Shown: positions 1 to 16,052 of the stretch, in pieces | How the letters are laid out: each line of letters begins with the position of its first letter | Numbering within the stretch: the stretch's first letter is position 1 | Source: a virus | Lineage: Duplodnaviria; Heunggongvirae; Uroviricota; Caudoviricetes | Virus record (IMG/VR): IMGVR_UViG_3300045988_092011 | Strand: one strand, 5' to 3' | Length of the DNA: 16,052 nt | Made by a program: the position numbers and the translations under genes | Notes under the pieces: generated by a model | Database searches by the model: none | Seen by the model: only the letters and a program-made list of their open reading frames with translations | Told to the model about the DNA's origin: nothing

Positions 1-19
1 AAGAAGGATTTTTGGCCTC

Positions 20-1102
20 TCATAGTCCAATACGGCGTAATGCGTTTCCCTCTGGGCAGGAGCTTAGCCAATCCAAGTTCTTGGGAACAAGGTCAGGGAT
101 TTCACGTAATGCAAGTGCTGCGCCAACAGCGAGAGATTCGAATCTAACTCGAGGTGTAGATTTTGCAGTAATAGTTTTCTTGAATCCTGCTGGGAAATAG
201 TTATCAACAAAAGATAGAACATTAGCAAACTCTTGTTTCATTGAGTTTTGTTTAGTTTCGTCTATATCTCGATTTTCTAACATATAGTCATTTAGAAAAT
301 CCCGTACGGAATGATCAAAGTTCTTGTACTTATCTAAGTAGGCAAAGAATCTTAATGTAAATTCTAACCGTTCATCTCGTTTTTCTTTAGTCTGAGATAA
401 AGGTGCTAATTCTTTAAATTTAGGTATTGTTGAGCATGGCTTAATAACCTGTGTATATAAATTTGTTGAACCAAGTTCTGATCCTTTACGGACTTCCATA
501 TCTTTCAATATATCGCTGCCAGAGTTAATACGTTCAAAAAGATCTCTACGGGTTTCTTCATTGCATTTAGAACTCAATTCTATAACGCGGACAGGAATTC
601 TCATGAAACGACGTTGACGTGATAATGGTAAATCTTGGAATTTGAAACCATTAAGGGCGTCTAAAGATTTCAGATCTTGTAAAACTAATTCATTTTGGAT
701 AAAAGCGTGTATAGTCCTAACTCGCTGTGAGCCATCAACAATCTCAATTCGCCCATCTAAATCGGGATCTTCGGAGAGAACATCTGCTGTAAATATATAT
801 GGTATAGGAAAACCCAAAATCAAAGACTCTATCAATCTTGATTGTCTTTTTTCACTCCAAACAAAATCCCTTTGATAATCAGGAACAAAGAGTTCGTTAG
901 TATCATCCTCTAATCCGCTATGATACTTATTAACTAATAACTCAACGGTAAATTCTTTGGTCTCAAAATCCACATCCTTTTGCTCAGCACGAATTTGCTC
1001 TTCAGCGTTTTGCTTTATCACCTCTAGCTGAGCAAGCAACTCTGCTCTTTTCTTGGCATTATCTTCATTTTCTAGTTGAGATTTTAAATCAATAATGTCC
1101 AT
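20..1102 (-). CDS. DUF262 / ParB-like nuclease-domain protein (GmrS-like N-terminal domain family); candidate anti-phage defence protein
   Basis: 366-aa ORF; start trimmed from TTG at 1120 to ATG at 1102 (MDIIDLK...), which is preceded by AGGGAG with a 6-nt spacer. Motifs PDYQRDFVW...LILGFPIPYIF...IVDGSQRVRTI match the DUF262 hallmark (QR..W and DGQQR-like). About 25-33% GC in the body versus 55-60% in the flanking phage genes. Sits in the old/tin slot beside cos. Confidence 0.75.
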   Translation of the reverse strand: MDIIDLKSQLENEDNAKKRAELLAQLEVIKQNAEEQIRAEQKDVDFETKEFTVELLVNKYHSGLEDDTNELFVPDYQRDFVWSEKRQSRLIESLILGFPIPYIFTADVLSEDPDLDGRIEIVDGSQRVRTIHAFIQNELVLQDLKSLDALNGFKFQDLPLSRQRRFMRIPVRVIELSSKCNEETRRDLFERINSGSDILKDMEVRKGSELGSTNLYTQVIKPCSTIPKFKELAPLSQTKEKRDERLEFTLRFFAYLDKYKNFDHSVRDFLNDYMLENRDIDETKQNSMKQEFANVLSFVDNYFPAGFKKTITAKSTPRVRFESLAVGAALALREIPDLVPKNLDWLSSCPEGNALRRIGL

Positions 1103-1287
1103 GTCTAGCTCCCTTAACAAGTGTTAAAAATTGAAGCGGATAGCATACCGCATAGATCATGAAAAATGCCATCATGTGCATGGATTTGCATGCGTCAGAA
1201 GTCGCTTTTATTGTTAGTTATCACTAGCGATGGTGTGCTCTTGGAGTGTTCATGCAACTGCATTAAAAACGCCCCATGAAGCGGGCG

Positions 1288-1306
1288 GGCGAGGCGGGGA
1301 AAGCAC
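1288..1306 (+). other. cos: cos site: P2-type 19-nt cohesive-end sequence GGCGAGGCGGGGAAAGCAC
   Basis: The exact 19-mer I recall as the P2 cohesive end is present in a GC-rich non-coding region, at the expected position beyond the 3' end of Q. Confidence 0.7.
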
Positions 1307-1448
1307 TGCGCGCTGGCGGTGGTGCTGATTTTATTTTTTCAGCGTCTCAGCGCGTCGTAATGGCGTTTAGATTGTGCGCCGAGGCGTTGGTGTGTCTGCG
1401 GGCTGTTTTGTGCGGTGGTGAGCGTGTGAGGGCATGATGACGGGGTGT

Positions 1449-1470
1449 AAAAAAGCCGCCCGCAGGCGGC
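1449..1470 (-). terminator. Rho-independent terminator of the P-Q late operon
   Basis: On the minus strand: 6-bp GC stem (1455-1460 with 1465-1470), 4-nt loop, then TTTTTT (plus-strand A-tract 1449-1454). The hairpin starts 5 nt after the Q stop codon. Confidence 0.6.
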
Positions 1471-1475
1471 GATGT

Positions 1476-2510
1476 TCAGCCGTTGTCAGTGTCCAGTGAG
1501 TAGTTTTTAAAGCGGATGACCTCCTGGCCGAGCCAGCCGTTTATTTCCCGAATCCTGTCCTGTAACGGGATTAGCTCATTGCGGACAAAGACCTTTGCCA
1601 CTTTCTCAATATCGCCCAGTGACCCGACGTTCTCCGGCTTGCCGCCCATCAACTGAAAGGGGATGCGGTGCGCGTCCAGCAGGTCAGCGGCGCTGGCTTT
1701 TTTGATATTAAAAAAATCGTCCTTCGTCGCCACTTCACTGAGGGGGATAATTTTAATGCCGTCGGCTTTCCCCTGCGGGGCATAGAGAAACAGATTTTTA
1801 AAGTTATTGCGGCCTTTCGACTTAACCATGTTTTCGCGAAGCATTTCGATATCGTTGCGATCCTGCACGGCATCGGTGACGTACATGATGTATCCGGCAT
1901 GTGCGCCGTTTTCGTAATACTTGCGGCGGAACAGCGTGGCCGACTCATTCAGCCAGGCAGAGTTAAGGGCGCTGAGATATTCCGGCAGGCCGTACAGCTC
2001 CTGATTGATATCCGGCTCCAGCAGGTGAAACACGGAGCCGGGCGCGAAGGCTGTCGGCTCGTTGAAGGACGGCACCCACCAGTAAACATCCTCCTCCATG
2101 CCACGGCGGGTATATTTTGCCGGCGAGGTTTCCAGCCTGATAACCTTACCGGTGGTGCTGTAACGCTTTTCCAGAAACGCATTACCGAACACCAGAAAAT
2201 CCAGCACAAAGCGGCTGAAATCCTGTTGAGAAAGCCACGGATGCGGGATAAATGTCGAGGCCAGAATATTGCGTTTAACGTAAATCGGTGAGCTGTGATG
2301 CACGGCAGCACGCAGGCTTTTCGCCAGACCGGTAAAGCTGACCGGTGGCTCATACCATCTGCCGTTACTGATGCATTCGACGTAATCCAGAATGTCACGG
2401 CGGTCGAGTACCGGCACCGGCTCACCAAAGGTGAATGCCTCCATTTTCGGGGCGCTGGCGGTCATTTTTTTTGCCGCAGGTTGCGGTGTTTTCCCTTTTT
2501 TCTTGCTCAT
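1476..2510 (-). CDS. Q: portal protein (P2 gpQ-like)
   Basis: 344 aa, N-terminus MSKKKGKTPQPAAKK; length and position match P2 Q. Its ATG overlaps the stop of P (ATGA). Confidence 0.93.
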   Translation of the reverse strand: MSKKKGKTPQPAAKKMTASAPKMEAFTFGEPVPVLDRRDILDYVECISNGRWYEPPVSFTGLAKSLRAAVHHSSPIYVKRNILASTFIPHPWLSQQDFSRFVLDFLVFGNAFLEKRYSTTGKVIRLETSPAKYTRRGMEEDVYWWVPSFNEPTAFAPGSVFHLLEPDINQELYGLPEYLSALNSAWLNESATLFRRKYYENGAHAGYIMYVTDAVQDRNDIEMLRENMVKSKGRNNFKNLFLYAPQGKADGIKIIPLSEVATKDDFFNIKKASAADLLDAHRIPFQLMGGKPENVGSLGDIEKVAKVFVRNELIPLQDRIREINGWLGQEVIRFKNYSLDTDNG

Positions 2511-4282
2511 CAGTAAAACTCCAGAATGGTGGATGTCAGCGGGGTGCTGATACCGGCGGTGAGTGGCTCATTTAACAGGGCGTGCATGGTCGCCCAGGCG
2601 AGGTCGGCGTGGCTGGCTTCCTCGCTGCGGCTGGCCTCATAGGTGGCACTGCGTCCGCTGCTGGTCATGGTCTTGCGGATAGCCATAAACGAGCTGGTGA
2701 TGTCGGTGGCGCTGACGTCATATTCCAGACAGCCACGGCGGATAACGTCTTTTGCCTTGAGCACCATTGCGGTTTTCATTTCCGGTGTGTAGCGGATATC
2801 GCGCGCGGCGGGATAGAACGAGCGCACGAGCTGGAACACGCCGACACCGAGGCCGGTGGCATCAATACCGATGTATTCGACGTTGTATTTTTCGGTGAGT
2901 TTGCGGATGGATTCCGCCTGAGTGGCAAAGTCCATGCCTTTCCACTGGTGACGCTCAAGTATTCTGAATTTGCCACCGGCCACCACCGGCGGTGCCAGCA
3001 CCACGCATCCGGCGCTGTCGCCACGGTGTGACGGGTCGTAACCAATCCATACCGGGCGGGAGCCGAACGGATTCGCGGCAAACGGCGCATAGTCTTCCCA
3101 TTCTTCCAGCGTGTCGACCATGCAGCGTTGCAGCTCCTCGAACGGGAATACCGACGCCTTGTCGTCAACAAATTCACACATGAACAGGTTTTTAAAATCG
3201 TCGGCGCTGTTTTCGCGTTTGAGCTGTTCAATGTCGAACAGCGTGCAGCCGCCTTTCAGGGCGTCCTCAATGGTGACAATCTGCCGCCACTGACCGTCCG
3301 CACAGAGAAGCCCACCGGAAAGGGCGTTATGACTGACGTCGATTTCCACGCGTTCGGCGGCGCTGGCGCGTCCCCGGTTGAACAGTTCACCGGACCAGAA
3401 CGGGTAGGCGTCGTGCGCCAGCGTGGACGGGGTGGAGAAATAGGTCGAGCGCAGGTGACTCTGTGAGGCCATACCTGATGCCACCTTACGCAGTACCTGA
3501 AAATTCGGGATCCAGAAAATCTCGTCGACGTACAGGTCGCCGTTATGGCTCTGCGCGGTGTTGGAGTTGGTGCCGAGAAAAATCAGTTTTGCGCCGTTAT
3601 TGCCCAGGACAATCGGGTCACCGGTCAGGTCAACGTCAACCAGCCGGGCAAAGGCGATGATGTATTCGCGGAACACATACGCCTGCGTTTTACTGGCCGA
3701 CAGAAAAATCTGGTTATGGCCGGTTTTCAGGGCGCGCAGCAGCGCTTCGCGGGAAAAATAAAACGTTGCGCCAATCTGGCGGGATTTCAGGATATCGCGG
3801 ATGCGGTGCTCAAGCCCGGCGCGATACCAGTGCAACTGATAGTCGAAAGACTGCTCAAAGAAAATCTGCTCCAGCTTTTCGATGGCCTCGTCACTGAAAA
3901 AATTCTTTTTCGGTTTGCGCCGCCCGTCTTTGTTGCGGTTAGCAACGTTCGGATTAAGGTCTGCCTCGTTGCCGGTCTGACTGTAACGGTTGACCCGTGC
4001 CAGTCGTTCAATCTGGCGTCCGAGCAGGTCAATTTCCTTGAAGTCACCGCCGGTTTTCTGCGGTTTGATGATGAGCTGGGTCAGTCGCGCTTCCAGACTC
4101 ATTTCGACACGGCTGATGGGGGCAACGCTGTCCCAGCCGTCGCGCTGTTTCCAGCTCTGCACCGTCGGGCGTTTCATCTGCAACATGGCGGCAATCTGCG
4201 GCACGGAAAACCCCTGCCAGTACAGCAGCGCCGCCTGACGACGCGGGTCGTGTAAAAGAGTGGTGTCTGTGGTGATGGTCAT
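2510..4282 (-). CDS. P: terminase large subunit / ATPase (P2 gpP-like)
   Basis: ORF track gives 600 aa; trimmed to the second ATG (MTITTDTTLLHDP...), preceded by GAGG, giving 590 aa, which matches my recollection of P2 P. Divergent from O. Confidence 0.9.
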   Translation of the reverse strand: MTITTDTTLLHDPRRQAALLYWQGFSVPQIAAMLQMKRPTVQSWKQRDGWDSVAPISRVEMSLEARLTQLIIKPQKTGGDFKEIDLLGRQIERLARVNRYSQTGNEADLNPNVANRNKDGRRKPKKNFFSDEAIEKLEQIFFEQSFDYQLHWYRAGLEHRIRDILKSRQIGATFYFSREALLRALKTGHNQIFLSASKTQAYVFREYIIAFARLVDVDLTGDPIVLGNNGAKLIFLGTNSNTAQSHNGDLYVDEIFWIPNFQVLRKVASGMASQSHLRSTYFSTPSTLAHDAYPFWSGELFNRGRASAAERVEIDVSHNALSGGLLCADGQWRQIVTIEDALKGGCTLFDIEQLKRENSADDFKNLFMCEFVDDKASVFPFEELQRCMVDTLEEWEDYAPFAANPFGSRPVWIGYDPSHRGDSAGCVVLAPPVVAGGKFRILERHQWKGMDFATQAESIRKLTEKYNVEYIGIDATGLGVGVFQLVRSFYPAARDIRYTPEMKTAMVLKAKDVIRRGCLEYDVSATDITSSFMAIRKTMTSSGRSATYEASRSEEASHADLAWATMHALLNEPLTAGISTPLTSTILEFY

Positions 4283-4455
4283 GAATACCTCGCCGTGATG
4301 AATACACGGCAAGGCTACTGAGTCGTGCCCTGCGATTCGCTAAGGTGCTGTTGTGTCAGTGATAAGCCATCCGGGACTGATGGCGGAGGATGCGCATCGT
4401 CGGGAAACTGATGCCGACATGTGACTCCTCTAATCACTATTCAGGACTCCTGACA
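4283..4455. promoter_or_regulatory. divergent P/O intergenic region, expected site of the late promoters for the P-Q and O-onward operons
   Basis: A 173-bp non-coding gap between divergently oriented P and O. In P2 this region carries Ogr-activated late promoters, but I found no exact TGT-N12-ACA element, so the assignment is positional only. Confidence 0.4.
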
Positions 4456-5310
4456 ATGGCAAAAAAAGCATCAAAATTCTTTCGTATCGGCGTTGAGGGT
4501 GACACCTGTGACGGGCGTGTCATCAGTGCGCAGGATATTCAGGAAATGGCCGAAACCTTTGACCCGCGAGTCTATGGTTGCCGCATTAACCTGGAACATC
4601 TGCGCGGCATCCTGCCTGACGGTATTTTTAAGCGTTATGGCGATGTGGTCGAACTGAAGGCCGAAAAGATTGACGATGATTCGGCGCTGAAAGGCAAATG
4701 GGCGCTGTTTGCGAAAATCACCCCGACCGATGACCTTATCGCGATGAACAAGGCCGCGCAGAAGGTCTATACCTCAATGGAAATTCAGCCGAACTTTGCC
4801 AATACCGGCAAATGTTATCTGGTGGGTCTGGCCGTCACCGATGACCCGGCAAGCCTCGGCACGGAATACCTGGAATTCTGCCGCACGGCAAAACACAACC
4901 CCCTGAACCGCTTCAAATTAAGCCCTGAAAACCTGATTTCAGTGGCAACGCCTGTTGAGCTGGAATTTGAAGACCTGCCTGAAACCGTGTTCACCGCCCT
5001 GACCGAAAAGGTGAAATCCATTTTTGGCCGCAAACAGGCCAGCGATGACGCCCGTCTGAATGACGTGCATGAAGCGGTGACCGCTGTCGCTGAACATGTG
5101 CAGGAAAAACTGAGCGCCACTGAGCAGCGCCTCGCTGAGATGGAAACTGCCTTTTCCGCTCTTAAGCAGGAGGTGACTGACAGGGCGGATGAAACCAGCC
5201 AGGCATTCACCCGCCTGAAAAACAGTCTCGACAGCACCGAAAGCCTGACCCAGCAGCGCCGCAGCAAGGCCACCGGCGGTGGCGGTGACGCCCTGATGAC
5301 GAACTGCTGA
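4456..5310 (+). CDS. O: capsid scaffolding protein (P2 gpO-like)
   Basis: ORF trimmed to ATG at 4456 (MAKKASKFFRIGVEGDTCDG...), giving 284 aa; AGGA lies 9 nt upstream. Matches P2 O in length and sequence. Confidence 0.9.
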   Translation: MAKKASKFFRIGVEGDTCDGRVISAQDIQEMAETFDPRVYGCRINLEHLRGILPDGIFKRYGDVVELKAEKIDDDSALKGKWALFAKITPTDDLIAMNKAAQKVYTSMEIQPNFANTGKCYLVGLAVTDDPASLGTEYLEFCRTAKHNPLNRFKLSPENLISVATPVELEFEDLPETVFTALTEKVKSIFGRKQASDDARLNDVHEAVTAVAEHVQEKLSATEQRLAEMETAFSALKQEVTDRADETSQAFTRLKNSLDSTESLTQQRRSKATGGGGDALMTNC

Positions 5311-5368
5311 CCGGCGTCAGCCAGTCCGGGCAAACCTTCACGATTAACCCTTAATTTCAGGAAAAACT

Positions 5369-6442
5369 ATGCGCCAGGAAACCCGCTTTAAATTTAATGC
5401 CTACCTGTCCCGTGTTGCCGAACTGAACGGCATCGACGCCGGTGATGTGTCGAAAAAATTCACCGTTGAACCGTCGGTCACCCAGACCCTGATGAACACC
5501 ATGCAGGAGTCCTCTGATTTTCTGACCCGCATCAACATTGTGCCGGTCAGCGAAATGAAAGGGGAAAAAATTGGTATTGGTGTCACCGGCTCCATCGCCA
5601 GCACCACCGACACCGCCGGTGGCACCGAGCGTCAGCCGAAGGACTTCTCGAAGCTGGCGTCAAACAAGTACGAATGCGACCAGATTAACTTCGATTTTTA
5701 TATCCGCTACAAAACGCTTGACCTGTGGGCGCGTTATCAGGATTTCCAGCTCCGTGTCCGTAACGCCATTATCAAACGCCAGTCCCTTGATTTAATCATG
5801 GCCGGTTTTAACGGCGTGAGGCGTGCCGAAACCTCTGACCGCAGCAGTAATCCGATGCTACAGGATGTGGCGGTCGGCTGGCTGCAGAAATACCGCAATG
5901 AAGCACCGGCGCGCGTGATGAGCAAGGTCACTGACGAGGAAGGGCACACCACCTCTGAGGTTATCCGCGTGGGTAAGGGCGGTGATTATGCCAGCCTTGA
6001 TGCACTGGTGATGGATGCGACCAACAACCTGATTGAGCCGTGGTATCAGGAAGACCCTGACCTTGTGGTGATTGTGGGGCGTCAGCTACTGGCGGACAAG
6101 TATTTCCCCATCGTTAACAAAGAGCAGGACAACAGCGAAATGCTGGCCGCTGACGTCATCATCAGCCAGAAACGCATCGGTAACCTGCCGGCGGTACGCG
6201 TCCCGTACTTCCCGGCGGATGCGATGCTCATCACGAAGCTGGAAAACCTGTCCATCTACTACATGGATGACAGCCATCGCCGCGTGATTGTGGAAAACCC
6301 GAAACTCGACCGCGTGGAGAACTACGAGTCAATGAACATTGATTACGTGGTGGAAGACTACGCCGCCGGTTGTCTGGTGGAAAAAATTAAGGTCGGTGAT
6401 TTCTCCACACCGGCTAAAGCGACCGCAGAGCCGGGAGCGTAA
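5369..6442 (+). CDS. N: major capsid protein (P2 gpN-like)
   Basis: 357 aa; AGGA 6 nt upstream of the ATG; position after O and length match P2 N. Confidence 0.93.
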   Translation: MRQETRFKFNAYLSRVAELNGIDAGDVSKKFTVEPSVTQTLMNTMQESSDFLTRINIVPVSEMKGEKIGIGVTGSIASTTDTAGGTERQPKDFSKLASNKYECDQINFDFYIRYKTLDLWARYQDFQLRVRNAIIKRQSLDLIMAGFNGVRRAETSDRSSNPMLQDVAVGWLQKYRNEAPARVMSKVTDEEGHTTSEVIRVGKGGDYASLDALVMDATNNLIEPWYQEDPDLVVIVGRQLLADKYFPIVNKEQDNSEMLAADVIISQKRIGNLPAVRVPYFPADAMLITKLENLSIYYMDDSHRRVIVENPKLDRVENYESMNIDYVVEDYAAGCLVEKIKVGDFSTPAKATAEPGA

Positions 6443-6445
6443 CTG

Positions 6446-7189
6446 ATGACGAGTCCCGCACAGCGCCACATGATGCGGGTCTCGGCAGCGATGGCCGCGC
6501 AGCGGGAAGCCGCCCCGCTGCGACATGCAACTGTCTATGAGCAGATGCTGGTTAAGCTCGCCGCAGACCAGCGCACACTGAAAGCAATTTATTCAAAAGA
6601 GCTGAAGGCCGCGAAAAAACGCGAACTGCTGCCGTTCTGGTTGCCGTGGGTGAACGGCGTGCTGGAGCAGGGCAAAGGTGCACAGGATGACATTCTGATG
6701 ACGGTCATGCTGTGGCGTCTGGATACCGGCGATATTGCCGGTGCGCTGGAGATTGCCCGTTATGCCCTGAAGTACGGTCTGACCATGCCGGGGAAACACC
6801 GCCGCACCCCGCCGTACATGTTCACCGAGGAGGTGGCGCTTGCGGCCATGCGCGCTCACGCTGCCGGTGAGTCTGTGGATACCCGCCTGCTGACGGACAC
6901 CCTCGAACTGACCGCCACGGCTGACATGCCTGATGAAGTGCGCGCAAAGCTGCACAAAATCACCGGTCTGTTTCTGCGTGACGGTGGTGATGCCGCCGGT
7001 GCGCTGGCACACCTGCAACGTGCGACACAGCTCGACTGTCAGGCAGGCGTCAAAAAAGAGATTGAACGACTGGAGCGGGAGCTGAAACCGAAGCCGGAGC
7101 CGCAGCCAAAAGCGGCCACCCGCGCCCCGCGTAAGACCCGGAGCGTGACACCGGCAAAACGTGGACGCCCGAAAAAGAAAGCCAGTTAA
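6446..7189 (+). CDS. M: terminase small (endonuclease) subunit (P2 gpM-like)
   Basis: 247 aa, starts MTSPAQRHMMRV, GGGAG 8 nt upstream; begins 4 nt after the N stop. Confidence 0.9.
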   Translation: MTSPAQRHMMRVSAAMAAQREAAPLRHATVYEQMLVKLAADQRTLKAIYSKELKAAKKRELLPFWLPWVNGVLEQGKGAQDDILMTVMLWRLDTGDIAGALEIARYALKYGLTMPGKHRRTPPYMFTEEVALAAMRAHAAGESVDTRLLTDTLELTATADMPDEVRAKLHKITGLFLRDGGDAAGALAHLQRATQLDCQAGVKKEIERLERELKPKPEPQPKAATRAPRKTRSVTPAKRGRPKKKAS

Positions 7190-7288
7190 CAACCGAATGC
7201 GCCCCGCGCCAGGGCGGCACGCCGGTCAGTGAGGGTGAATCACCTGACACTGCACCGGCGTCCACCGCCCGACTTTTCAGAGGTAGTC

Positions 7289-7798
7289 ATGATGACGCTG
7301 ATTATTCCGCGAAAGGAGGCTCCCGTGTCCGGTGAGGGTACGGTGGTCATCCCGCAACCGGCAGGCGACGAGCCGGTGATTAAAAACACGTTCTTTTTTC
7401 CCGATATCGACCCGAAGCGCGTCCGGGAACGTATGCGCCTTGAGCAGACCGTCGCCCCCGCCCGTCTGCGTGAGGCCATCAAGTCAGGCATGGCTGAAAC
7501 AAATGCGGAGCTGTACGAGTACCGCGAACAGAAAATTGCCGCCGGTTTTACGCGTCTGGCGGACGTTCCGGCGGACGACATCGACGGTGAAAGCATCAAA
7601 GTTTTTTACTACGAGCGCGCTGTGTGTGCGATGGCGACCGCGTCGCTTTATGAGCGTTACCGCGGCGTGGATGCCAGTGCCAAGGGCGACAAGAAGGCCG
7701 ACAGCATTGACAGCACCATTGATGAGCTGTGGCGGGATATGCGCTGGGCGGTGGCGCGCATCCAGGACAAGCCGCGCTGCATCGTGAGTCAAATCTGA
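7289..7798 (+). CDS. L: head completion/stabilisation protein (P2 gpL-like)
   Basis: ORF track starts at GTG 7229; trimmed to ATG 7289 (MMTLIIPRKEAP...), with GAGG 8 nt upstream, giving 169 aa as in P2 L. Confidence 0.88.
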   Translation: MMTLIIPRKEAPVSGEGTVVIPQPAGDEPVIKNTFFFPDIDPKRVRERMRLEQTVAPARLREAIKSGMAETNAELYEYREQKIAAGFTRLADVPADDIDGESIKVFYYERAVCAMATASLYERYRGVDASAKGDKKADSIDSTIDELWRDMRWAVARIQDKPRCIVSQI

Positions 7799-8001
7799 TG
7801 AAGACCTTTGCGCTACAGGGCGACACGCTCGACGCCATTTGTGTCCGGTATTACGGGCGCACTGAGGGCGTGGTTGAGACCGTGCTCGCCGCAAATCCGG
7901 GACTGGCTGAACTGGGTGCGGTGCTGCCACACGGCACCGCCGTCGAACTGCCCGACGTTCAGACCGCGCCCGTGGCTGAAACTGTCAATCTGTGGGAGTA
8001 A
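7798..8001 (+). CDS. X: tail protein X (P2 gpX-like)
   Basis: 67-aa product MKTFALQGDTLDAICVRYYGRTEG...; its ATG overlaps the L stop (TGATG). Falls below the ORF-track length cutoff as a stand-alone ORF, so it was recovered from inside the 7729..8001 ORF. Confidence 0.85.
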   Translation: MKTFALQGDTLDAICVRYYGRTEGVVETVLAANPGLAELGAVLPHGTAVELPDVQTAPVAETVNLWE

Positions 8002-8004
8002 CGC

Positions 8005-8286
8005 ATGACAGCAGAAGAAAAAAGCGTCCTGTCGCTTTTCATGATTGGGGTGCTGATTGTTGTCGGCAAGGTGCTTGCCGGTGGTGAACCCATCACCCCG
8101 CGTCTGTTTATCGGGCGCATGTTGCTTGGTGGTTTTGTCTCGATGGTTGCCGGTGTTGTTCTGGTGCAGTTTCCTGACCTGTCACTGCCTGCGGTGTGCG
8201 GCATTGGCTCCATGCTGGGTATCGCCGGTTATCAGGTGATTGAGATTGCCATTCAGCGCCGCTTTAAGGGCAGGGGGAAACCGTAA
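8005..8286 (+). CDS. Y: holin (P2 gpY-like)
   Basis: 93 aa with hydrophobic membrane-spanning segments and a charged C-terminus; GGGAG upstream; first gene of the lysis cassette. Confidence 0.9.
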   Translation: MTAEEKSVLSLFMIGVLIVVGKVLAGGEPITPRLFIGRMLLGGFVSMVAGVVLVQFPDLSLPAVCGIGSMLGIAGYQVIEIAIQRRFKGRGKP

Positions 8287-8783
8287 TGCCGGTAATTAAC
8301 ACACATCAGAATATCGCCGCCTTTCTCGACATGCTGGCCGTGTCCGAAGGGACGGCGAATCATCCGCTGACGAAAAACCGGGGCTATGACGTGATAGTCA
8401 CCGGACTGGACGGGAAGCCGGAAATTTTCACCGACTACAGTGACCACCCGTTCGCGTATGGCCGACCGGCGAAGGTGTTTAACCGTCGCGGTGAAAAATC
8501 CACGGCCTCCGGTCGCTATCAGCAGCTTTACCTGTTCTGGCCGCATTACCGCAAACAGCTTGCCCTGCCGGATTTCAGTCCGTTGTCACAGGACAGACTC
8601 GCCATTCAGTTGATCCGCGAACGCGGTGCACTGGATGACATCCGGGAGGGACGCATTGAGCGCGCCATTTCACGCTGTCGCAATATCTGGGCGTCCCTGC
8701 CGGGTGCCGGTTACGGTCAGCGTGAGCATTCACTGGAAAAACTGGTCACCGTCTGGCGTACCGCTGGCGGCGTACCGGCTTAA
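8286..8783 (+). CDS. K: endolysin / lysozyme (P2 gpK-like)
   Basis: 165 aa; its ATG overlaps the Y stop (TAATG); position and length match P2 K. Confidence 0.92.
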   Translation: MPVINTHQNIAAFLDMLAVSEGTANHPLTKNRGYDVIVTGLDGKPEIFTDYSDHPFAYGRPAKVFNRRGEKSTASGRYQQLYLFWPHYRKQLALPDFSPLSQDRLAIQLIRERGALDDIREGRIERAISRCRNIWASLPGAGYGQREHSLEKLVTVWRTAGGVPA

Positions 8784-8797
8784 ACGGAGTAAACACC

Positions 8798-9223
8798 ATG
8801 AAGAAATTATCCCTTTCACTGATGCTGAACGTGTCGCTGGCGCTGATGCTGGCACTGTCCCTGATTTACCCGCAGAGCGTGGCCGTCAGTTTTGTCGCTG
8901 CCTGGGCGATTCTGGTGACGGTTATCTGTGTGGTTGCCGGTGGTGTCGGCGTGTATGCCACTGAGTATGTGCTGGAACGCTACGGGCGGGAGCTGCCGCC
9001 GGAATCGCTGGCCGTGAAGATTGTCACGTCGCTGTTTTTGCAGCCGGTGCCGTGGCGCAGACGGGCGGCGGCTCTGGTAGTGGTGGTGGCGACGTTTATC
9101 TCGCTGGTCGCTGCCGGGTGGATTTTTACCGCGCTGATTTATCTTGTGGTGTCGCTGTTTTTCCGGCTGATACGTAAAGCCTGTCGTCAGCGTCTTGAGG
9201 GGCGGGAACTATGTCAAAGCTGA
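8798..9223 (+). CDS. lysA: lysis regulatory membrane protein LysA
   Basis: 141 aa, strongly hydrophobic with several predicted transmembrane segments; ACGGAG 8 nt upstream; matches P2 lysA in position and length. Confidence 0.8.
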   Translation: MKKLSLSLMLNVSLALMLALSLIYPQSVAVSFVAAWAILVTVICVVAGGVGVYATEYVLERYGRELPPESLAVKIVTSLFLQPVPWRRRAAALVVVVATFISLVAAGWIFTALIYLVVSLFFRLIRKACRQRLEGRELCQS

Positions 9224-9636
9224 TGATTGTGCTGGTCGTGTTGCTATCGCTGGCGGTGGCCGGTCTGTTTCTGGCGAAGCATGAAAACGCCAGGCTGCGC
9301 GTCTCGCTGGACAGGGCGAACAATGTCGCCAGCGGGCAGCAGACGACCATCACCATGCTGAAAAATCAGCTTCATGTTGCGCTCACCAGGGCAGACAAAA
9401 ACGAGCTGGCGCAGGTGGCACTGCGTCAGGAACTGGAGAACGCCGCGAAGCGTGAAGCACAGCGCGAGAAAACCATCACGAGGTTACTTAATGAAAACGA
9501 AGATTTTCGCCGCTGGTACGGTGCTGACCTGCCTGATGCTGTGCGCCGGTTGCACCAGCGCCCCGCCTGCACCGACGCCAGTGATTGTCGCCAACGCCTG
9601 CCCGAAAGTGAGTCTTTGCCCGATGCCGGGCAGTGA
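9211..9636 (+). CDS. lysB: LysB, Rz-like inner-membrane spanin
   Basis: 141 aa, N-terminal membrane anchor (MSKLMIVLVVLLSLAVAGLF) followed by a charged helical periplasmic region; overlaps the lysA 3' end. Confidence 0.8.
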   Translation: MSKLMIVLVVLLSLAVAGLFLAKHENARLRVSLDRANNVASGQQTTITMLKNQLHVALTRADKNELAQVALRQELENAAKREAQREKTITRLLNENEDFRRWYGADLPDAVRRLHQRPACTDASDCRQRLPESESLPDAGQ

Positions 9637-9781
9637 CCCGGAGACGAACGGCGATTTAAGTGCCGATATCCGGCAGCTTGAGAACGCGCTGGCACGCTGT
9701 GCCAGCCAGGTAAAAATGATTAAACACTGTCAGGACGAAAACGATGCTCAAACCCGACAGCCTGCGCAGGGCGCTGACTGA
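9491..9781 (+). CDS. lysC: LysC, Rz1-like outer-membrane lipoprotein spanin, embedded in the +1 frame of lysB
   Basis: 96-aa product MKTKIFAAGTVLTCLMLCAGCTSAPPAPTP with a signal peptide, lipobox-like Cys and a Pro-rich region; GAGG 8 nt upstream; starts inside lysB and runs past its stop into R. Confidence 0.75.
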   Translation: MKTKIFAAGTVLTCLMLCAGCTSAPPAPTPVIVANACPKVSLCPMPGSDPETNGDLSADIRQLENALARCASQVKMIKHCQDENDAQTRQPAQGAD

Positions 9782-10211
9782 TGCCGTCACGGTGCTGAAA
9801 ACCAGTCCAGAGATGCTTCGGATATTCGTGGATAACGGGAGTATTGCCTCCACGCTGGCGACGTCGCTGTCGTTCGAAAAGCGTTACACGCTCAATGTGA
9901 TTGTGACCGACTTTACCGGTGATTTTGACCTGCTCATCGTGCCGGTGCTGGCGTGGCTGCGGGAAAATCAGCCCGACATCATGACCACCGACGAAGGTCA
10001 GAAAAAAGGTTTCACGTTTTATGCAGACATCAACAATGACAGCAGCTTTGATATCAGCATCAGCCTGATGCTGACCGAGCGCACGCTGGTCAGTGAGGTT
10101 GACGGCGCGCTGCATGTGAAGAATATCCCGGAACCTTCGCCGCCGGAGCCGGTTACCCGCCCGATGGAGCTGTATATCAATGGCGAACTGGTGAGCAAGT
10201 GGGATGAATGA
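9744..10211 (+). CDS. R: tail completion protein (P2 gpR-like)
   Basis: 155 aa; position and length match P2 R; overlaps the S start. Confidence 0.88.
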   Translation: MLKPDSLRRALTDAVTVLKTSPEMLRIFVDNGSIASTLATSLSFEKRYTLNVIVTDFTGDFDLLIVPVLAWLRENQPDIMTTDEGQKKGFTFYADINNDSSFDISISLMLTERTLVSEVDGALHVKNIPEPSPPEPVTRPMELYINGELVSKWDE

Positions 10212-10656
10212 GTTTAAGCGTTTTGAAGACCGGCTGACCGGACTTATTGAATCGCTGTCACCGTCAGGGCGTCGGCGACTGAGCGCCGAACTGGCGAAAC
10301 GTCTGCGGCAGAGTCAGCAGCGCCGGGTGATGGCACAGAAAGCCCCGGACGGCACACCCTACGCACCACGCCAGCAGCAGAGCGCCAGAAAAAAGACCGG
10401 TCGCGTTAAGCGAAAAATGTTTGCGAAACTTATCACCAGTCGTTTTTTGCATATCCGCGCCAGCCCTGAACAGGCATCAATGGAGTTTTACGGCGGGAAG
10501 TCACCGAAAATAGCCAGTGTGCATCAGTTCGGTCTGTCGGAAGAAACCCGGAAAGACGGTAAGAAAATTGATTATCCGGCGCGTCCTCTGCTCGGCTTTA
10601 CCGGTGAGGATGTGCAGATGATTGAAGAGATTATCCTGGCTCACCTCGACCGTTAG
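10204..10656 (+). CDS. S: tail completion protein (P2 gpS-like)
   Basis: 150 aa; position and length match P2 S. Confidence 0.88.
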   Translation: MNEFKRFEDRLTGLIESLSPSGRRRLSAELAKRLRQSQQRRVMAQKAPDGTPYAPRQQQSARKKTGRVKRKMFAKLITSRFLHIRASPEQASMEFYGGKSPKIASVHQFGLSEETRKDGKKIDYPARPLLGFTGEDVQMIEEIILAHLDR

Positions 10657-10722
10657 TTGTGCCATTCCCGACACCTCATCGTTACATTGCCGCCGGTATG
10701 ACCCGGCGGCATCCTTCCCGTT
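10657..10722 (+). promoter_or_regulatory. S-V intergenic region with a GC-rich hairpin; expected location of the late promoter for the V operon
   Basis: 66-bp gap containing a perfect 8-bp inverted repeat GCCGCCGG / CCGGCGGC (10689-10696 and 10703-10710, 6-nt loop) with no T-tract after it. P2 has a late promoter ahead of V, but no exact Ogr-site consensus was found. Confidence 0.35.
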
Positions 10723-11358
10723 ATGAACACTCTCGCAAATATCCAGGAACTCGCGCGCGCACTGCGCAACATGATCCGCACCGGCCTTGTCGTCGAAACC
10801 AACCTTAAAGCCGGTCGCTGCCGTGTGCAGACCGGCGGCATGTGCACCGACTGGCTTCAGTGGCTGACCTGTCGTGCCGGGCGTTCGCGCACATGGTGGG
10901 CACCTTCCGTGGGGGAGCAGGTGCTGATTCTGGCCGTGGGCGGTGAACTTGACACGGCGTTTGTTCTGCCGGGGATTTATTCCGGCGATAACCCCGCGCC
11001 GTCTGCGTCGGCGGATGCCCTGCATATCCGTTTCCCTGACGGGGCGGTGATTGAGTATGAACCCGAAACCAGTGCACTCACGGTAAGCGGAATTAAAACG
11101 GCCAGCGTGACGGCTTCTGATTCTGTTACTGCCACGGTGCCGGTGGTCATGGTGAAAGCATCAACCCGCATCACCCTGGACACACCGGAGGTGGTCTGCA
11201 CCAACAGGCTGATTACCGGCACGCTGGAAGTGCGGAAGGGCGGGACGATGCGCGGCAACATTGAACACACCGGCGGTGAACTCTCATCAAACGGTAAGGT
11301 ACTGCATACCCATAAACACCCCGGCGACAGCGGCGGCACAACCGGGAGCCCTCTATGA
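10723..11358 (+). CDS. V: baseplate spike / assembly protein (P2 gpV-like)
   Basis: 211 aa; position and length match P2 V. Confidence 0.9.
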   Translation: MNTLANIQELARALRNMIRTGLVVETNLKAGRCRVQTGGMCTDWLQWLTCRAGRSRTWWAPSVGEQVLILAVGGELDTAFVLPGIYSGDNPAPSASADALHIRFPDGAVIEYEPETSALTVSGIKTASVTASDSVTATVPVVMVKASTRITLDTPEVVCTNRLITGTLEVRKGGTMRGNIEHTGGELSSNGKVLHTHKHPGDSGGTTGSPL

Positions 11359-11702
11359 CAGCGCGTTATCTCGGAATGAATCGCAGTGATGGCCTGACTG
11401 TCACTGACCTTGAGCATATCAGCCAGAGTATCGGCGATATCCTGCGCACACCGGTCGGCTCACGGGTGATGCGTCGTGATTACGGCTCGTTGCTGGCGTC
11501 AATGATTGACCAGCCGCAGACCCCGGCGCTTGAGTTGCAGATTAAGGTCGCCTGTTACATGGCCGTGCTGAAATGGGAACCCCGCGTCACCCTGTCATCC
11601 GTCACCACGGCGCGCAGTTTTGACGGGCGAATGACGGTCACGTTAACCGGTCAGCACAACGACACCGGCCAGCCACTTTCGTTAACCATCCCTGTGAGTT
11701 GA
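11355..11702 (+). CDS. W: baseplate wedge protein (P2 gpW-like)
   Basis: 115 aa; its ATG overlaps the V stop (ATGA). Confidence 0.9.
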   Translation: MTARYLGMNRSDGLTVTDLEHISQSIGDILRTPVGSRVMRRDYGSLLASMIDQPQTPALELQIKVACYMAVLKWEPRVTLSSVTTARSFDGRMTVTLTGQHNDTGQPLSLTIPVS

Positions 11703-11706
11703 AACC

Positions 11707-12615
11707 ATGCCGATTATCGACCTGAACCAGCTACCCGCACCGGATGTGGTCGAGGAGCTGGACTTTGAAACCATTCTTGCCGAACGCAAGGCGACACTGA
11801 TTTCCCTTTACCCGGAAGACCAGCAGGAGGCGGTCGCCCGTACCCTGACGCTGGAATCTGAGCCTCTCGTCAAACTGCTGGAGGAAAATGCTTATCGTGA
11901 GCTTATCTGGCGTCAGCGTGTGAATGAGGCTGCACGGGCGGTGATGCTGGCCTGTGCCGCCGGTAATGACCTTGATGTGATTGGTGCCAATTACAACACC
12001 ACACGCCTGATTATCACCCCGGCAGATGATTCGACCCTCCCGCCGACACCGGCCGTGATGGAATCTGACACCGATTATCGTCTGCGTATTCAGCAGGCGT
12101 TTGAAGGTTTAAGCGTCGCCGGGTCGGTGGGGGCCTATCAGTATCATGGTCGAAGTGCCGACGGGCGTGTCGCAGATATCTCTGTCACCAGTCCTTCTCC
12201 GGCCTGCGTCACCATCTCTGTGCTGTCACGTGAAAATAACGGTGTGGCATCCGAAGACCTGCTGGCGGTGGTGCGCAACGCCCTTAATGGTGAGGACGTC
12301 AGACCGGTGGCCGACCGCGTGACCGTGCAGTCTGCCGCCATCGTTGAATACCAGATAAACGCCACGCTTTACCTTTACCCTGGCCCCGAAAGCGAACCCA
12401 TCCGCGCTGCTGCCGTGAAAAAACTGGAAGCGTACATCACGGCACAACACCGGCTGGGGCGTGACATCCGTCTGTCTGCCATTTATGCCGCTTTGCATGT
12501 GGAAGGCGTGCAGCGTGTCGAGCTGGCCGCACCACTGGCCGACATCGTGCTCAACAATACGCAGGCGTCTTTCTGTACCGAATACCGCGTCGTGACCGGA
12601 GGCTCGGATGAGTGA
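11707..12615 (+). CDS. J: baseplate protein (P2 gpJ-like)
   Basis: 302 aa; position and length match P2 J. Confidence 0.9.
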   Translation: MPIIDLNQLPAPDVVEELDFETILAERKATLISLYPEDQQEAVARTLTLESEPLVKLLEENAYRELIWRQRVNEAARAVMLACAAGNDLDVIGANYNTTRLIITPADDSTLPPTPAVMESDTDYRLRIQQAFEGLSVAGSVGAYQYHGRSADGRVADISVTSPSPACVTISVLSRENNGVASEDLLAVVRNALNGEDVRPVADRVTVQSAAIVEYQINATLYLYPGPESEPIRAAAVKKLEAYITAQHRLGRDIRLSAIYAALHVEGVQRVELAAPLADIVLNNTQASFCTEYRVVTGGSDE

Positions 12616-13138
12616 TTCGCGACTGCTGCCGACCGGCTCATCACCGCTTGAAGTTGCCGCCGCAAAAGCCTGTGCGGAAATTGAAAAGACACCGGTCAGG
12701 ATTCGTGAGCTGTGGAACCCGGACACCTGCCCGGCAAATCTGCTGCCGTGGCTGGCGTGGGCGTTTTCGGTCGACAGGTGGGATGAAAAGTGGCCGGAAG
12801 CGACAAAACGCGCCGTTATCCGCGATGCCTATTTCATCCACTGTCATAAAGGCACTATAGGTGCAATCCGGCGTGTGGTGGAGCCGCTGGGCTATCTCAT
12901 CAACGTGACGGAGTGGTGGGAAACCAGTGACCCGCCGGGCACCTTCCGGCTTGATATTGGTGTACTGGAAAGCGGCATCACAGAGGCAATGTATCAGGAA
13001 ATGGAACGGCTGATTGCTGATGCCAAACCTGCAAGCCGCCACCTTATTGGCCTGAACATTACCCGGGACATTCCCGGCTACTTGTTCGCCGGTGGTGTGG
13101 CTTATGACGGCGATGTAATTACGGTTTACCCAGGATAA
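12608..13138 (+). CDS. I: baseplate protein (P2 gpI-like)
   Basis: 176 aa; GGAGG upstream; overlaps the J 3' end by 8 nt. Confidence 0.9.
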   Translation: MSDSRLLPTGSSPLEVAAAKACAEIEKTPVRIRELWNPDTCPANLLPWLAWAFSVDRWDEKWPEATKRAVIRDAYFIHCHKGTIGAIRRVVEPLGYLINVTEWWETSDPPGTFRLDIGVLESGITEAMYQEMERLIADAKPASRHLIGLNITRDIPGYLFAGGVAYDGDVITVYPG

Positions 13139-13148
13139 GTGAGGAATA

Positions 13149-15398
13149 ATGAGCACAAAATTCAGAACCGTTATCACCACTGCCGGTGCAGCAAAGCTGG
13201 CAGCGGCAACCGCACCGGGAGGGCGGAAGGTCAACATTACCACGATGGCCGTCGGGGATGGCGGTGGTAAATTGCCTGTCCCGGATGCCGGACAGACCGG
13301 GCTTATCCATGAAGTCTGGCGACATGCGCTGAACAAAATCAGCCAGGACAAACGAAACAGTAATTATATTATCGCAGAGCTGGTTATTCCGCCGGAGGTG
13401 GGCGGTTTCTGGATGCGTGAGCTTGGCCTGTACGATGATGCGGGAACGTTAATTGCTGTGGCGAACATGGCCGAAAGTTATAAGCCTGCCCTTGCCGAAG
13501 GCTCAGGGCGTTCGCAGACCTGCCGCATGGTCATCATCGTCAGCAGTGTGGCCTCAGTGGAGCTGACCATTGACACCACAACGGTGATGGCGACGCAGGA
13601 TTACGTTGATGACAAAATTGCAGAGCACGAACAGTCACGACGTCACCCGGACGCCTCGCTGACCGCAAAAGGTTTTACTCAGTTAAGCAGTGCGACCAAC
13701 AGCACGTCTGAAACACTGGCCGCAACGCCGAAAGCGGTAAAGGCCGCTTATGATCTTGCTAACGGGAAATATACCGCGCAGGATGCCACCACAGCGCGAA
13801 AAGGCCTTGTCCAGCTCAGTAGCGCCACCAATAGCGATTCTGAAACGCTCGCCGCAACGCCGAAAGCGGTAAAGGCAGCATATGACCTTGCTAACGGGAA
13901 ATACACTGCACAGGACGCCACCACAACGCGAAAAGGCCTTGTTCAGCTCAGTAGCGCCACCAACAGCGATTCTGAAACGCTTGCGGCAACGCCAAAGGCG
14001 GTTAAGACAGCATATGACCTTGCTAACGGGAAATACACTGCACAGGATGCCACCACGGCGCGAAAAGGTCTTGTCCAGCTCAGTAGCGCCACCAACAGTG
14101 ATTCTGAAACGCAGGCTGCAACGCCAAAGGCGGTGAAGTCTGCCTATGACAATGCTGAAAAACGTCTTCAGAAAGATCAGAACGGTGCGGATATCCCTGA
14201 TAAAGAACGCTTCCTGAGTAACATTAATGTTTACAGCAAAGGTGAAGTGGATAAGAAAAAGGGAATGCGAAAGTATTCGTTTGCAGCCCCTGCAAATGTC
14301 GTTGCCGGGAAGTGGTACCCCGTTATCTTTCGCCGTGCTGCCAGCTTTTCAGGAGAAATGGCATCCCGCGTTGTTATTTCCACTGGTTGTTATAACGGCG
14401 ATTATGTAATGAATAACTGCGAGTTTAATGGCATGGTTATGCCCGGAGGCTGGACTGATCGTGGTTCATATGCGGCAGGTTATTTCTGGACGTATCAGAC
14501 TAATGAGCGTTCAATCCATTCCATTGTTACAAGCCTGAAAGATGATGATGTATGTAGTGTTTTTTATGTTGAAGCCAGAGCTTTCCCTGTACAAATTCTT
14601 GCAGAGGAAGGGCTAACGGTTATTGTTCCGACAGAGGATTATGTCGTCGGTCAAACGACATATAAGTGGGGGGCAACTAATCCCGCTACAGAAAGCACGA
14701 ACGCACAGGCTATTCTGGATTTTAAAAATGGGCGCGGTTATTACTGCTCACATCCATTTATTTCCAGCCTTTCAGGAAATGCTGCAACAGCAACGAAGTT
14801 AGCGAATGCAAGAAATATTAATGGTGTCAGATTTGATGGTTCTGCCGATATAAATATTAATACACTGGTATCCAGAAACCGTGTTACTGCATTAGGTGGG
14901 AGCTCAAAGGGTACACCAGGTATTCAGATGTATGAGGCATACAACAATGGCTACCCAACAGCCTATGGTAATGTGCTTCATCTCACTGGCGTAACTGCAG
15001 TAGGAGAGGGTGAGTTACTTATTGGCTGGAGTGGAACCAGCGGTGCTCATGCTCCGGCATATATTCGCTCCCGACGAGATACCACAGATGCTAACTGGTC
15101 TGGATGGGCGCAACTATATACAACTGCTCATAAACCCTCAGCGGGAGATGTTGGTGCATACACCAAAGCTGAGTCAGATTCACGTTATGTGAGAGACATG
15201 CGGCTGGGCGGTGCATCTACATATAAACCAGCAAATAATGGTATTACATGGACGCATCAGGCTCCGTCAGGTTGCGTATATACCGGCATTATTGTTCAGG
15301 ATACCGGCTCAAACTCTGCCGATAACATTGGTGGCGTATATTACAGACCGGTGCAGAAATACATTAACGGGACATGGTATAACGTGGCGCAGGTATAA
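13149..15398 (+). CDS. H: tail fibre protein (P2 gpH-like) with an internal tandem repeat array and a divergent AT-rich distal (receptor-binding) region
   Basis: 749 aa; GAGG upstream. N-terminus is P2 H-like, the middle carries 44-aa repeats, and the C-terminal region contains a GNAATATKLANARNINGVRFDGSADI motif that I recall from Mu S / lambda Stf-type side tail fibres. Confidence 0.92.
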   Translation: MSTKFRTVITTAGAAKLAAATAPGGRKVNITTMAVGDGGGKLPVPDAGQTGLIHEVWRHALNKISQDKRNSNYIIAELVIPPEVGGFWMRELGLYDDAGTLIAVANMAESYKPALAEGSGRSQTCRMVIIVSSVASVELTIDTTTVMATQDYVDDKIAEHEQSRRHPDASLTAKGFTQLSSATNSTSETLAATPKAVKAAYDLANGKYTAQDATTARKGLVQLSSATNSDSETLAATPKAVKAAYDLANGKYTAQDATTTRKGLVQLSSATNSDSETLAATPKAVKTAYDLANGKYTAQDATTARKGLVQLSSATNSDSETQAATPKAVKSAYDNAEKRLQKDQNGADIPDKERFLSNINVYSKGEVDKKKGMRKYSFAAPANVVAGKWYPVIFRRAASFSGEMASRVVISTGCYNGDYVMNNCEFNGMVMPGGWTDRGSYAAGYFWTYQTNERSIHSIVTSLKDDDVCSVFYVEARAFPVQILAEEGLTVIVPTEDYVVGQTTYKWGATNPATESTNAQAILDFKNGRGYYCSHPFISSLSGNAATATKLANARNINGVRFDGSADININTLVSRNRVTALGGSSKGTPGIQMYEAYNNGYPTAYGNVLHLTGVTAVGEGELLIGWSGTSGAHAPAYIRSRRDTTDANWSGWAQLYTTAHKPSAGDVGAYTKAESDSRYVRDMRLGGASTYKPANNGITWTHQAPSGCVYTGIIVQDTGSNSADNIGGVYYRPVQKYINGTWYNVAQV
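13668..14150 (+). repeat. in-frame tandem repeat, 132-bp unit (44 aa), about 3.7 copies inside H
   Basis: Copies at 13668-13799, 13800-13931, 13932-14063 and a partial copy 14064 to about 14150. Each encodes KGLVQLSSATNSDSETLAATPKAVKAAYDLANGKYTAQDATTAR with small variations. Copies 2 and 3 differ at about 11 of 132 nt, mostly synonymous. Confidence 0.9.
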
Positions 15399-15401
15399 TT
15401 T

Positions 15402-15929
15402 ATGCAGCATTTAAAAAATATTACGGCGGGTAATCCAAAAACGGTTGAACAATATCAATTGACAAAGGACTTTGATGTTGTCTGGTTTTTTTCAGAAGAT
15501 GGTAAGAACTGGTACGAAGAACAAAAGTATTTTGCTGATGACACGATAAAAATAGCGTACGACAAAGATAATATTATCCGCTATGTGGAAAAGGATGTGA
15601 CAGCTATAAGACCGGATGGATTAAGTGTGGTTGAAGTGGCGGATATTACTGCTAACCGACGGGCGGACATTTCAGGGAACTGGATGTTTAAGGATGGCAA
15701 AGTGATTAAACGCATTTATACGGCAGAGGAATTGCAGCAGCAGGCAGAAAACCGGAAAGCCAGACTTCTTGCAGATGCTGAATCCGTGATTTTGCCGCTG
15801 GAGCGCGCTGTCAGGTTGAACATGGCAACAGAGGAGGAGCGCACACGGCTGGAGGCTTGGGAACGCTACAGCGTTGTGGTCAGTCGTGTGGATCCTGCAA
15901 ATCCTGAATGGCCGGAAATGCCGCAATAA
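15402..15929 (+). CDS. G: tail fibre assembly chaperone (P2 gpG-like, Tfa family)
   Basis: 175 aa immediately downstream of H; AT-rich 5' two-thirds and a more GC-rich 3' third; length matches P2 G. Confidence 0.88.
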
Positions 15930-15964
15930 GTTGTATGAACTCTGGTGTGAGCTTACATATCTAT

Positions 15965-16004
15965 GGCACAGAGTAAAGCCTAATCTGACAGTCCGCTCTG
16001 TGCC
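15965..16004. other. 9-bp inverted repeat (GGCACAGAG ... CTCTGTGCC) with a 22-nt spacer, downstream of G
   Basis: Perfect 9-bp arms at 15965-15973 and 15996-16004; no T-tract follows, so it is not a classic intrinsic terminator. Function unknown. Confidence 0.3.
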
Positions 16005-16052
16005 AGGAGCGGAAGTTGCCAAGAGAACTCTTGCAAAGGTATGATAACGTAG

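Follow-up and report, generated by a model that had tools for sequence, protein, structure and literature searches.

The minus-strand reading frame at the left end of the window (the whole stretch of 16,052 nucleotides of DNA analysed here) is probably the sensor subunit of a three-gene cassette, consisting of genes for a DUF262 protein, a HEPN_MAE_28990 nuclease and a C5 cytosine methyltransferase, which occupies the P2 hotspot between gpA and cos/portal and whose DUF262 gene is truncated in the window. The predicted role of the protein, assigned by analogy with related systems, is most likely that of a DNA-sensing NTPase subunit controlling the HEPN nuclease. The DUF262 gene is rare, horizontally moving hotspot cargo and is almost certainly defence-related; its partner genes are located just beyond the left window edge.

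The DUF262 gene and its location beside cos

Inspection of the left end of the window revealed the minus-strand open reading frame that an earlier note on this DNA, made from the sequence alone, had described, running from an ATG at 1102 to a TGA stop at 20-22 and encoding 360 aa, while an alternative TTG start at 1120 gives a 366-aa product of the same DUF262 frame. Positions 60-16052 of the window are 100.0% identical to positions 2526278-2542270 of the genome of E. coli O169:H41 strain 2014EL-1345-2 (NZ_CP024223.1), in which the DUF262 protein has 380 aa (WP_000351260.1). Both motifs quoted in the earlier note, PDYQRDFVW and DGSQR, are present (Table 1), and among 28 homologues the residues P74, D75, Y76, Q77, R78, F80 and W82 of the former and D123, G124, Q126 and R127 of the latter are invariant, with S125 being at least 90% conserved.

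Table 1. Coordinates of the features at the left end of the window.
Feature	Position	Strand	Basis or remark
Unrelated DNA flush-joined to prophage sequence	1..59		Junction 59/60; 59/59 identity to UEQL01002448
DUF262 gene, codons 1 to ~348 of 380	60..1102	-	Identical to WP_000351260.1 (ParB-DUF262 + ParBDB-type)
DGSQR (aa 123-127), equivalent of the DGQQR NTP-hydrolysis motif in GmrSD/BrxU	722..736	-	Sequence reading; role from literature
PDYQRDFVW, first DUF262 signature (aa 74-82)	857..883	-	Sequence reading
Cargo-side leader with ribosome-binding site AAGGGAG at 1109-1115	1103..1250	-	Cargo/backbone boundary within ~1163-1253
Ribosome-binding site (Shine-Dalgarno) AAGGGAG	1109-1115	-	Upstream of ATG 1102
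P2 cos cohesive-end sequence, GGCGAGGCGGGGAAAGCAC	1288..1306	+	Single exact match, 0 expected by chance
P2 portal gene Q, conserved hotspot flank	1476..2510	-	ORF; annotated phage portal protein in the identical reference

Regarding the identity of the protein, the earlier assignment to DUF262 and the ParB fold was confirmed by a profile search, in which Pfam PF03235 (GmrSD_N) matched aa 63-206 of the window protein (E 4.2e-26; 92.7 bits against a cut-off of 33.2), and the DUF262 signature motifs (PxYQRxxxW and DGxQR) occur together with the ParB/Srx fold. No match to DUF1524 (PF07510), HNH or any other nuclease domain was detected in Pfam even at E<=1, in agreement with the view that the protein falls outside the canonical GmrSD type. 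The earlier note had also read the C-terminal half as free of a nuclease; this half is nevertheless not empty, as it aligns to the NsnA profile and corresponds to the ParBDB-type helical DNA-binding domain defined for NsnA.

Comparison with defence-system models, which the earlier note had proposed, returned NsnA as the best PADLOC model, with E-values of 4.8e-54 (window copy) and 2e-54 (full-length protein; profile positions 23-376 of 385), followed by PD-T4-2_A, with 6.5e-34 (window copy) and 5e-35 (full-length protein; profile positions 55-355 of 363), and the matches to the GmrSD-like PADLOC models HEC-05, HEC-06, SspE and Orf5 were limited to the first motif region. A search of NCBIfam with the DUF262 protein gave nothing meaningful. 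The AlphaFold model (pLDDT 85, pTM 0.50) comprises an N-terminal helical hairpin (aa 3-40), an alpha/beta domain of the ParB/Srx fold (~aa 46-193) and an all-helical C-terminal domain (~aa 197-378), the limits of these three regions being placed alternatively at aa 1-45, ~aa 46-210 and ~aa 214-378. The structure comparison suggested at the outset was carried out with Foldseek and recovered the same families with weak E-values (>=0.012), which, together with the pTM of 0.50, make the packing of the domains uncertain; a sequence-profile search of the PDB gave marginal DUF262 matches only (E 0.001-0.006) and no solved close relative.

Regarding genomic context, the P2 cos sequence GGCGAGGCGGGGAAAGCAC and the portal gene Q on its far side place the DUF262 gene in the accessory slot next to cos, and the location of gpA on the other side of the cassette in NZ_CP024223.1 shows this slot to be the one from gpA to cos/portal. 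The published P2 hotspot lies "between the replication endonuclease and portal protein". The GC content of the ORF body (60-1102) is 35.8% and that of the remainder of the window 55.3%; the contrast that had been claimed is thus real, although the 25-33% quoted for the gene was too low, as 300-nt windows over the ORF body range from 32 to 37%. This position and composition support the earlier reading of the gene as cargo of the old/tin hotspot that was gained by horizontal transfer.

Other P2-like prophages and phages begin to match the window only from 1163, 1174 or 1244-1253 onward. The DUF262 gene was detected in 9 of 5,426 complete E. coli genomes, while matches to any portion of window 1-1480, for the most part to the end near the portal gene, were obtained in 2,153 of these genomes. 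The gene therefore shows the gpA-cos/portal position, the variation between P2-like prophages and the atypical composition that characterise hotspot cargo. A sigma-70 scan between cos and the ATG found no convincing promoter, and an Rfam search of the window detected no RNA family.

Partner genes and predicted role of the cassette

The gene order in NZ_CP024223.1 is gpA, C5 cytosine methyltransferase, HEPN nuclease, DUF262, cos and portal. The HEPN gene (WP_000373633.1) begins 1 nt past the DUF262 stop, and the methyltransferase gene (WP_001697730.1) is encoded on the plus strand, convergent to the DUF262-HEPN pair. The HEPN partner, a protein of 226 aa, belongs to HEPN_MAE_28990 (Pfam PF18737, 2.8e-29) and has a secondary RiboL-PSP-HEPN match, while the reference methylase matches Pfam PF00145 (4.4e-58). 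With PADLOC, the HEPN partner had no match at E<=0.01 and none at E<=10.

The same three genes are found beside gpA on all six of the contigs listed, out of 13 with the exact 380-aa protein. The comparison of the same slot across P2-like prophages that the earlier note had called for placed the cassette in the E. coli reference and also in a Salmonella P2-like prophage, in which an 86% identical allele occupies the same slot (portal, cassette, DinI, gpA). A Klebsiella allele, likewise 86% identical, has the three genes in a lambdoid-type prophage, flanked by replication genes on one side and by RusA/antiterminator Q on the other, and in Peduovirus P24B2 the whole module is present at the end of the genome as a 45%-identical allele. 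The three genes move as a unit between P2-like and lambdoid prophages.

Gene neighbourhoods were surveyed at 80 loci from Cyanobacteria, Planctomycetota, Acidobacteriota, Bacteroidota, Verrucomicrobiota, and Gamma- and Betaproteobacteria, with HEPN adjacency counted over the 77 loci with enough downstream sequence and the methylase over the 51 with enough flank. A same-strand HEPN gene abuts the DUF262 gene in 75/77 loci, the other two having fragmented HEPN ORFs, and most of the gaps between the two genes fall in the range from -11 to +9 nt. Of 76 HEPN partners, 75-76 retain the catalytic motif R174-N-x-L-[SA]-H179-G (R-x4-H). At 39/51 loci the module includes a C5 methylase, with no methylase nearby at the remaining 12; 20 of the 39 methylase genes are convergent and downstream of HEPN, whereas among those on the same strand 18 lie upstream and one downstream, and 33 of the 39 match the E. 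coli methylase at E<1e-100.

Thus, the HEPN adjacency and the methylase linkage indicate that the DUF262 gene encodes one subunit of a conserved two-gene core that usually has its own methylase. The reference and the related loci show the arrangement of the ParB-methylase-MAE_28990 operon type, the HEPN and methylase genes being located outside the window. This is the split architecture that the earlier note had considered as an alternative, with the nuclease encoded separately by the adjoining HEPN gene.

Regarding the mechanism, the DUF262/ParBDB protein would, by analogy with SspE, BrxU, Menshen and PD-T4-2, bind DNA and hydrolyse NTP via DGSQR; SspE, BrxU and HEC-06 depend on the corresponding motif, DGQQR, for both NTP hydrolysis and defence. 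The trigger may be invading DNA that lacks the m5C mark of the cassette or that carries a foreign mark, upon which the HEPN nuclease would be licensed, and this nuclease would most likely cleave RNA, in keeping with the general RNase nature of HEPN domains (Anantharaman 2013), halting phage growth. The methylase would mark resident DNA as self. The full R-M-like version of this scheme, with a self mark made by the methylase, is suggested by analogy and is a serious possibility, judged just short of evenly balanced; methylase self-marking is not obligatory for such systems, given that 12/51 loci have no methylase and that PD-T4-2 works without one.

That the complete cassette follows a distinct R-M logic, in which the methylase marks self, a ParB-like NTPase clamp reads methylation and the effector is a HEPN RNase instead of a DNase, is possible though rather unlikely. 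If true, the cassette would be a modification-gated abortive system whose three genes travel together through P2-like and lambdoid prophages and across bacterial phyla; such modification-gated logic has been predicted from gene neighbourhoods since 2013.

Alternatively, the cassette could be type IV-like, with the DUF262 protein sensing modified phage DNA (e.g., hmC or glc-hmC) and triggering the HEPN nuclease, and with the methylase present as a hitch-hiking anti-restriction gene. This would be consistent with GmrSD, BrxU and SspE, which are DUF262 proteins sensing modified DNA, with the block of T4 by PD-T4-2 in the absence of a methylase, with the loci that have no methylase (12/51), and with the placing of a Vibrio DUF262 + HEPN_MAE_28990 locus in 'Type-IV restriction' (Rousset 2022). 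However, one orthologous methylase (33/39 at E<1e-100) recurs across phyla and in two gene orders, and it accompanies the pair when the latter passes from one prophage type to another, unrelated one. Orthology across phyla and joint mobility make hitch-hiking hard to argue, and the type IV-like reading is regarded as doubtful.

The junction at 59/60 and the remaining readings

In contrast to the start of the sensor gene, its 3' end as given in the earlier note is chimeric. The last 12 codons and the stop of the window ORF (20-58, minus strand) come from bases 1-59, which have a GC content of 49%, whereas the genuine protein of the identical reference has 380 aa. The best 120 homologues are each ~380 aa long and cover only 97% of the window protein, which matches this 380-aa family through residue 348 (DWLSS), after which CPEGNALRRIGL and a stop replace EEFKRLTTSDGANSRVKVIERIEYVRDKLLED. 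The window copy is without 32 conserved C-terminal residues of the family, and the missing segment includes the family-invariant residues F351, T356, D358, N361, S362, R369, E371 and V373. Thus, the chimeric junction accounts for the 360-aa length, for the stop codon and for the seeming downstream start coupled through ATGA, and the window copy, cut at 59/60, would as written miss both partner genes as well as helices that are conserved at the C-terminus. Neither the 360-aa nor the 366-aa window protein was found on record by exact-sequence look-up.

Regarding the origin of bases 1-59, no match was detected by blastn in 5,426 complete E. coli genomes, nor among 72,556 plasmids or in viral contigs; an exact 36-mer search found them absent from the GTDB species representatives, and there is no second match within the window or the reference locus. 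Among the databases tried, only a metagenome scan gave a source, the human-gut metagenome contig UEQL01002448, to which the bases are 59/59 identical at 5388-5446 of the examined stretch. This contig carries a polysaccharide-type locus, whose genes include epimerase, BNR-like and ATP-grasp genes, and the 59 bases fall within one of its ordinary coding regions. At 59/60 the two sequences abut directly, and neither microhomology nor a repeat nor the end of a mobile element was detected. An IS or transposon end, a group II intron and a divergent partner allele were rejected as explanations of the junction on the grounds that there are no repeats, that nothing in E. coli matches and that the 59 bases lie in such a coding region of the metagenome contig. 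The ATGA start/stop overlap at 20-23, considered as translational coupling to another partner gene, was set aside as a by-product of the junction.

The junction is most likely an assembly or stitching artefact. It is unlikely that it is biological, i.e., that the cassette was broken in the source by a rearrangement or foreign insertion and left a decaying sensor pseudogene. Defence cargo does turn over fast in the P2 hotspot, and degraded partner copies are known at three other loci; however, a contig of an unrelated gut bacterium carries the identical 59 bases, which occur in 0/5,426 E. coli genomes and 0/72,556 plasmids, the join is flush without microhomology, repeat or mobile-element end, the other 15,993 bases are 100% identical to one reference, and the exact truncated protein is without any record.

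R-M-like modules with a linked methylase can act as addiction systems. The cassette might on this ground serve primarily to stabilise the prophage, as an addiction or epigenetic module, and not to act against phages; the methylase would be the antidote and the ParB-like protein would gate a HEPN toxin, and HEPN nucleases are indeed common as toxins (Anantharaman 2013). Such a role is improbable, however, as the tested cargo of the P2 hotspot is overwhelmingly anti-phage and PD-T4-2 and Menshen, which are its nearest relatives among tested systems, both serve in defence.

The stand-alone architecture put forward in the earlier note, an undescribed 360-aa DUF262 defence protein acting without a nuclease partner, is highly improbable: although the window itself shows no partner gene and no nuclease domain, its apparent novelty arises from the window edge and the chimeric 59-base end, the homologues (best 120) are ~380 aa long, a HEPN gene directly follows in the 100%-identical prophage and in 75/77 loci, the methylase is usually linked, and the cassette has already been catalogued.

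Prior descriptions and comparison with known defence systems

The sensor subunit of the preferred reading thus belongs to a cassette that is already catalogued, of an architecture that was predicted in 2013 and with close functional relatives that have been validated, and the description of the gene as undescribed in the earlier note was not sustained. The P2-hotspot table of Rousset 2022 lists WP_000351260, WP_001697730 and WP_000373633, which are the proteins of the reference locus, and the ParB-methylase-MAE_28990 HEPN operon type was noted by Anantharaman 2013; in addition, the NsnA and PD-T4-2_A models match the full-length protein. Both published entries are computational listings that give no phenotype, target or mechanism. 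The table of tested systems in Rousset 2022 has no DUF262 entry and the cassette is absent from it, the cassette is not treated in the DARNA preprint or in the 2026 P2/P4 hotspot paper, and no experiment on the DUF262-HEPN-methylase cassette was found in the literature.

DUF262 proteins without a fused nuclease (PD-T4-2, Menshen and Dazbog) are validated defences, and the present cassette is a compact three-gene version, easily cloned from E. coli and with tightly conserved partners. It could reveal how a ParB-like NTPase reads DNA and activates a HEPN nuclease, and could show whether the linked methylase gives self-marking. Since the PADLOC models miss the HEPN partner, the cassette would stay uncalled by current defence-finder models.

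Regarding known systems, the GmrSD, BrxU and SspE proteins have 580-820 aa as opposed to the 380 aa found here, and the cassette protein differs from them in having no DUF1524/HNH domain and in relying on a nuclease in trans, of the HEPN type; the lack of DUF1524 excludes it from this group. The P2 genes old and tin, placed in the same gpA-cos/portal accessory slot as the DUF262 cassette, encode proteins unrelated to it, Old being an ATPase-TOPRIM nuclease and Tin a ssDNA-binding-protein poison.

The best match among the defence models is the NsnA protein of Menshen, a ParB-DUF262 + ParBDB protein that has the same two-domain plan and has been proposed to be the sensor (Millman 2022; Li et al. 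2025). However, the genes for the NsnB ABC-ATPase/DUF3696 and the NsnC inPIN effector are missing, the next gene here encoding a HEPN nuclease, and the absence of NsnB and NsnC means that the cassette is not Menshen.

PD-T4-2 from E. coli ECOR65, a validated defence that stems from the E. coli pangenome, consists of DUF262 and HEPN proteins and protects against T4 in its native strain (Vassallo et al. 2022). The likeness lies in a two-gene core, in which a ~360-380-aa DUF262 protein without DUF1524 is followed just downstream by a separate HEPN protein, and the sensor matches PD-T4-2_A and has an adjacent downstream HEPN gene in the reference and related loci. The ORFs of PD-T4-2, however, span 1,540 bp in total, while the HEPN partner of the present cassette is longer (226 aa) and is best placed in HEPN_MAE_28990 rather than RiboL-PSP, a C5 methylase is linked, and the sensor scores higher on NsnA than on PD-T4-2_A. 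The HEPN partner matches no PD-T4-2_B model, and the cassette is therefore not a PD-T4-2 orthologue.

The HEPN-ParB-DNA methylase operons of the MAE_28990 type (Anantharaman 2013) have the same architecture as the cassette, of which the window holds the truncated first gene only. By analogy, the cassette would work most like PD-T4-2; it belongs to the ParB-methylase-MAE_28990 operon type.

Chimeric left end of the window and apparent start codon

At its left end the window is a chimera: positions 1-59 are identical over 59 bases to a human-gut metagenome contig (UEQL01002448) carrying a polysaccharide-type locus, and abut flush DNA that is 100% identical to a P2-like prophage of E. coli O169:H41. 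The 26-mer used as query was present in a single record among the 241 million metagenome records scanned. The ATG at the end of the DUF262 sensor ORF begins a reading frame (MRGQKSF...) that leaves the window, and the ATGA has the look of a site where translation of a downstream partner gene would be coupled to that of the sensor; this reading was rejected, the overlap being a product of the chimeric junction.

Features of the sensor gene and the cos region

In many distant homologues the sequence does not start until roughly query residue 30, and the N-terminal extension of the sensor is thus variable within the family. Two GC-rich hairpins with T-runs flank cos, and terminator-like sites are enriched around cos (six found vs 1.3 expected).

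Features in and around the sensor gene
Feature	Window position	Strand	Remarks
Helical hairpin, N-terminal (confident prediction)	~968-1102 (aa 1-45)		Ahead of DUF262 domain
ATGA stop/start overlap	20-23	minus	TGA stop of ORF shares bases with ATG
GC-rich hairpin then T-run	1270-1287	minus	Just beyond cos, cargo side
GC-rich hairpin then T-run	1455-1470	minus	Directly after portal gene Q

The cassette in other phages

In Klebsiella pneumoniae (loci L090-L092), a prophage of lambdoid type houses the same three-gene cassette, with an 86%-identical sensor; DnaC-like/ParB-HTH replication genes border it on one side and the RusA/antiterminator region on the other. The cassette is hence mobile across phage backbones that are unrelated to each other. 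In the hotspot of a Salmonella enterica P2-like prophage (L093-L094), DinI is present besides the C5 methylase of the cassette, and a second methyltransferase, of the Dam type (MethyltransfD12), adjoins gpA.

The HEPN gene is reduced to 160 aa in one Klebsiella pneumoniae locus (L092) and broken up into several short ORFs in two cyanobacterial MAGs (L021 and L043), of which L043 also has a short DUF262 ORF (211 aa); these cyanobacterial ORFs may represent decaying copies or sequencing frameshifts.

Peduovirus P24B2 (L083; LR595873.1, 27397-32118), an ICTV-listed P2-like phage, has a diverged allele of the complete module at the end of its genome (DUF262 45% and HEPN 30% identity, C5 methylase also present), with the genes annotated only as hypothetical proteins or methyltransferase.
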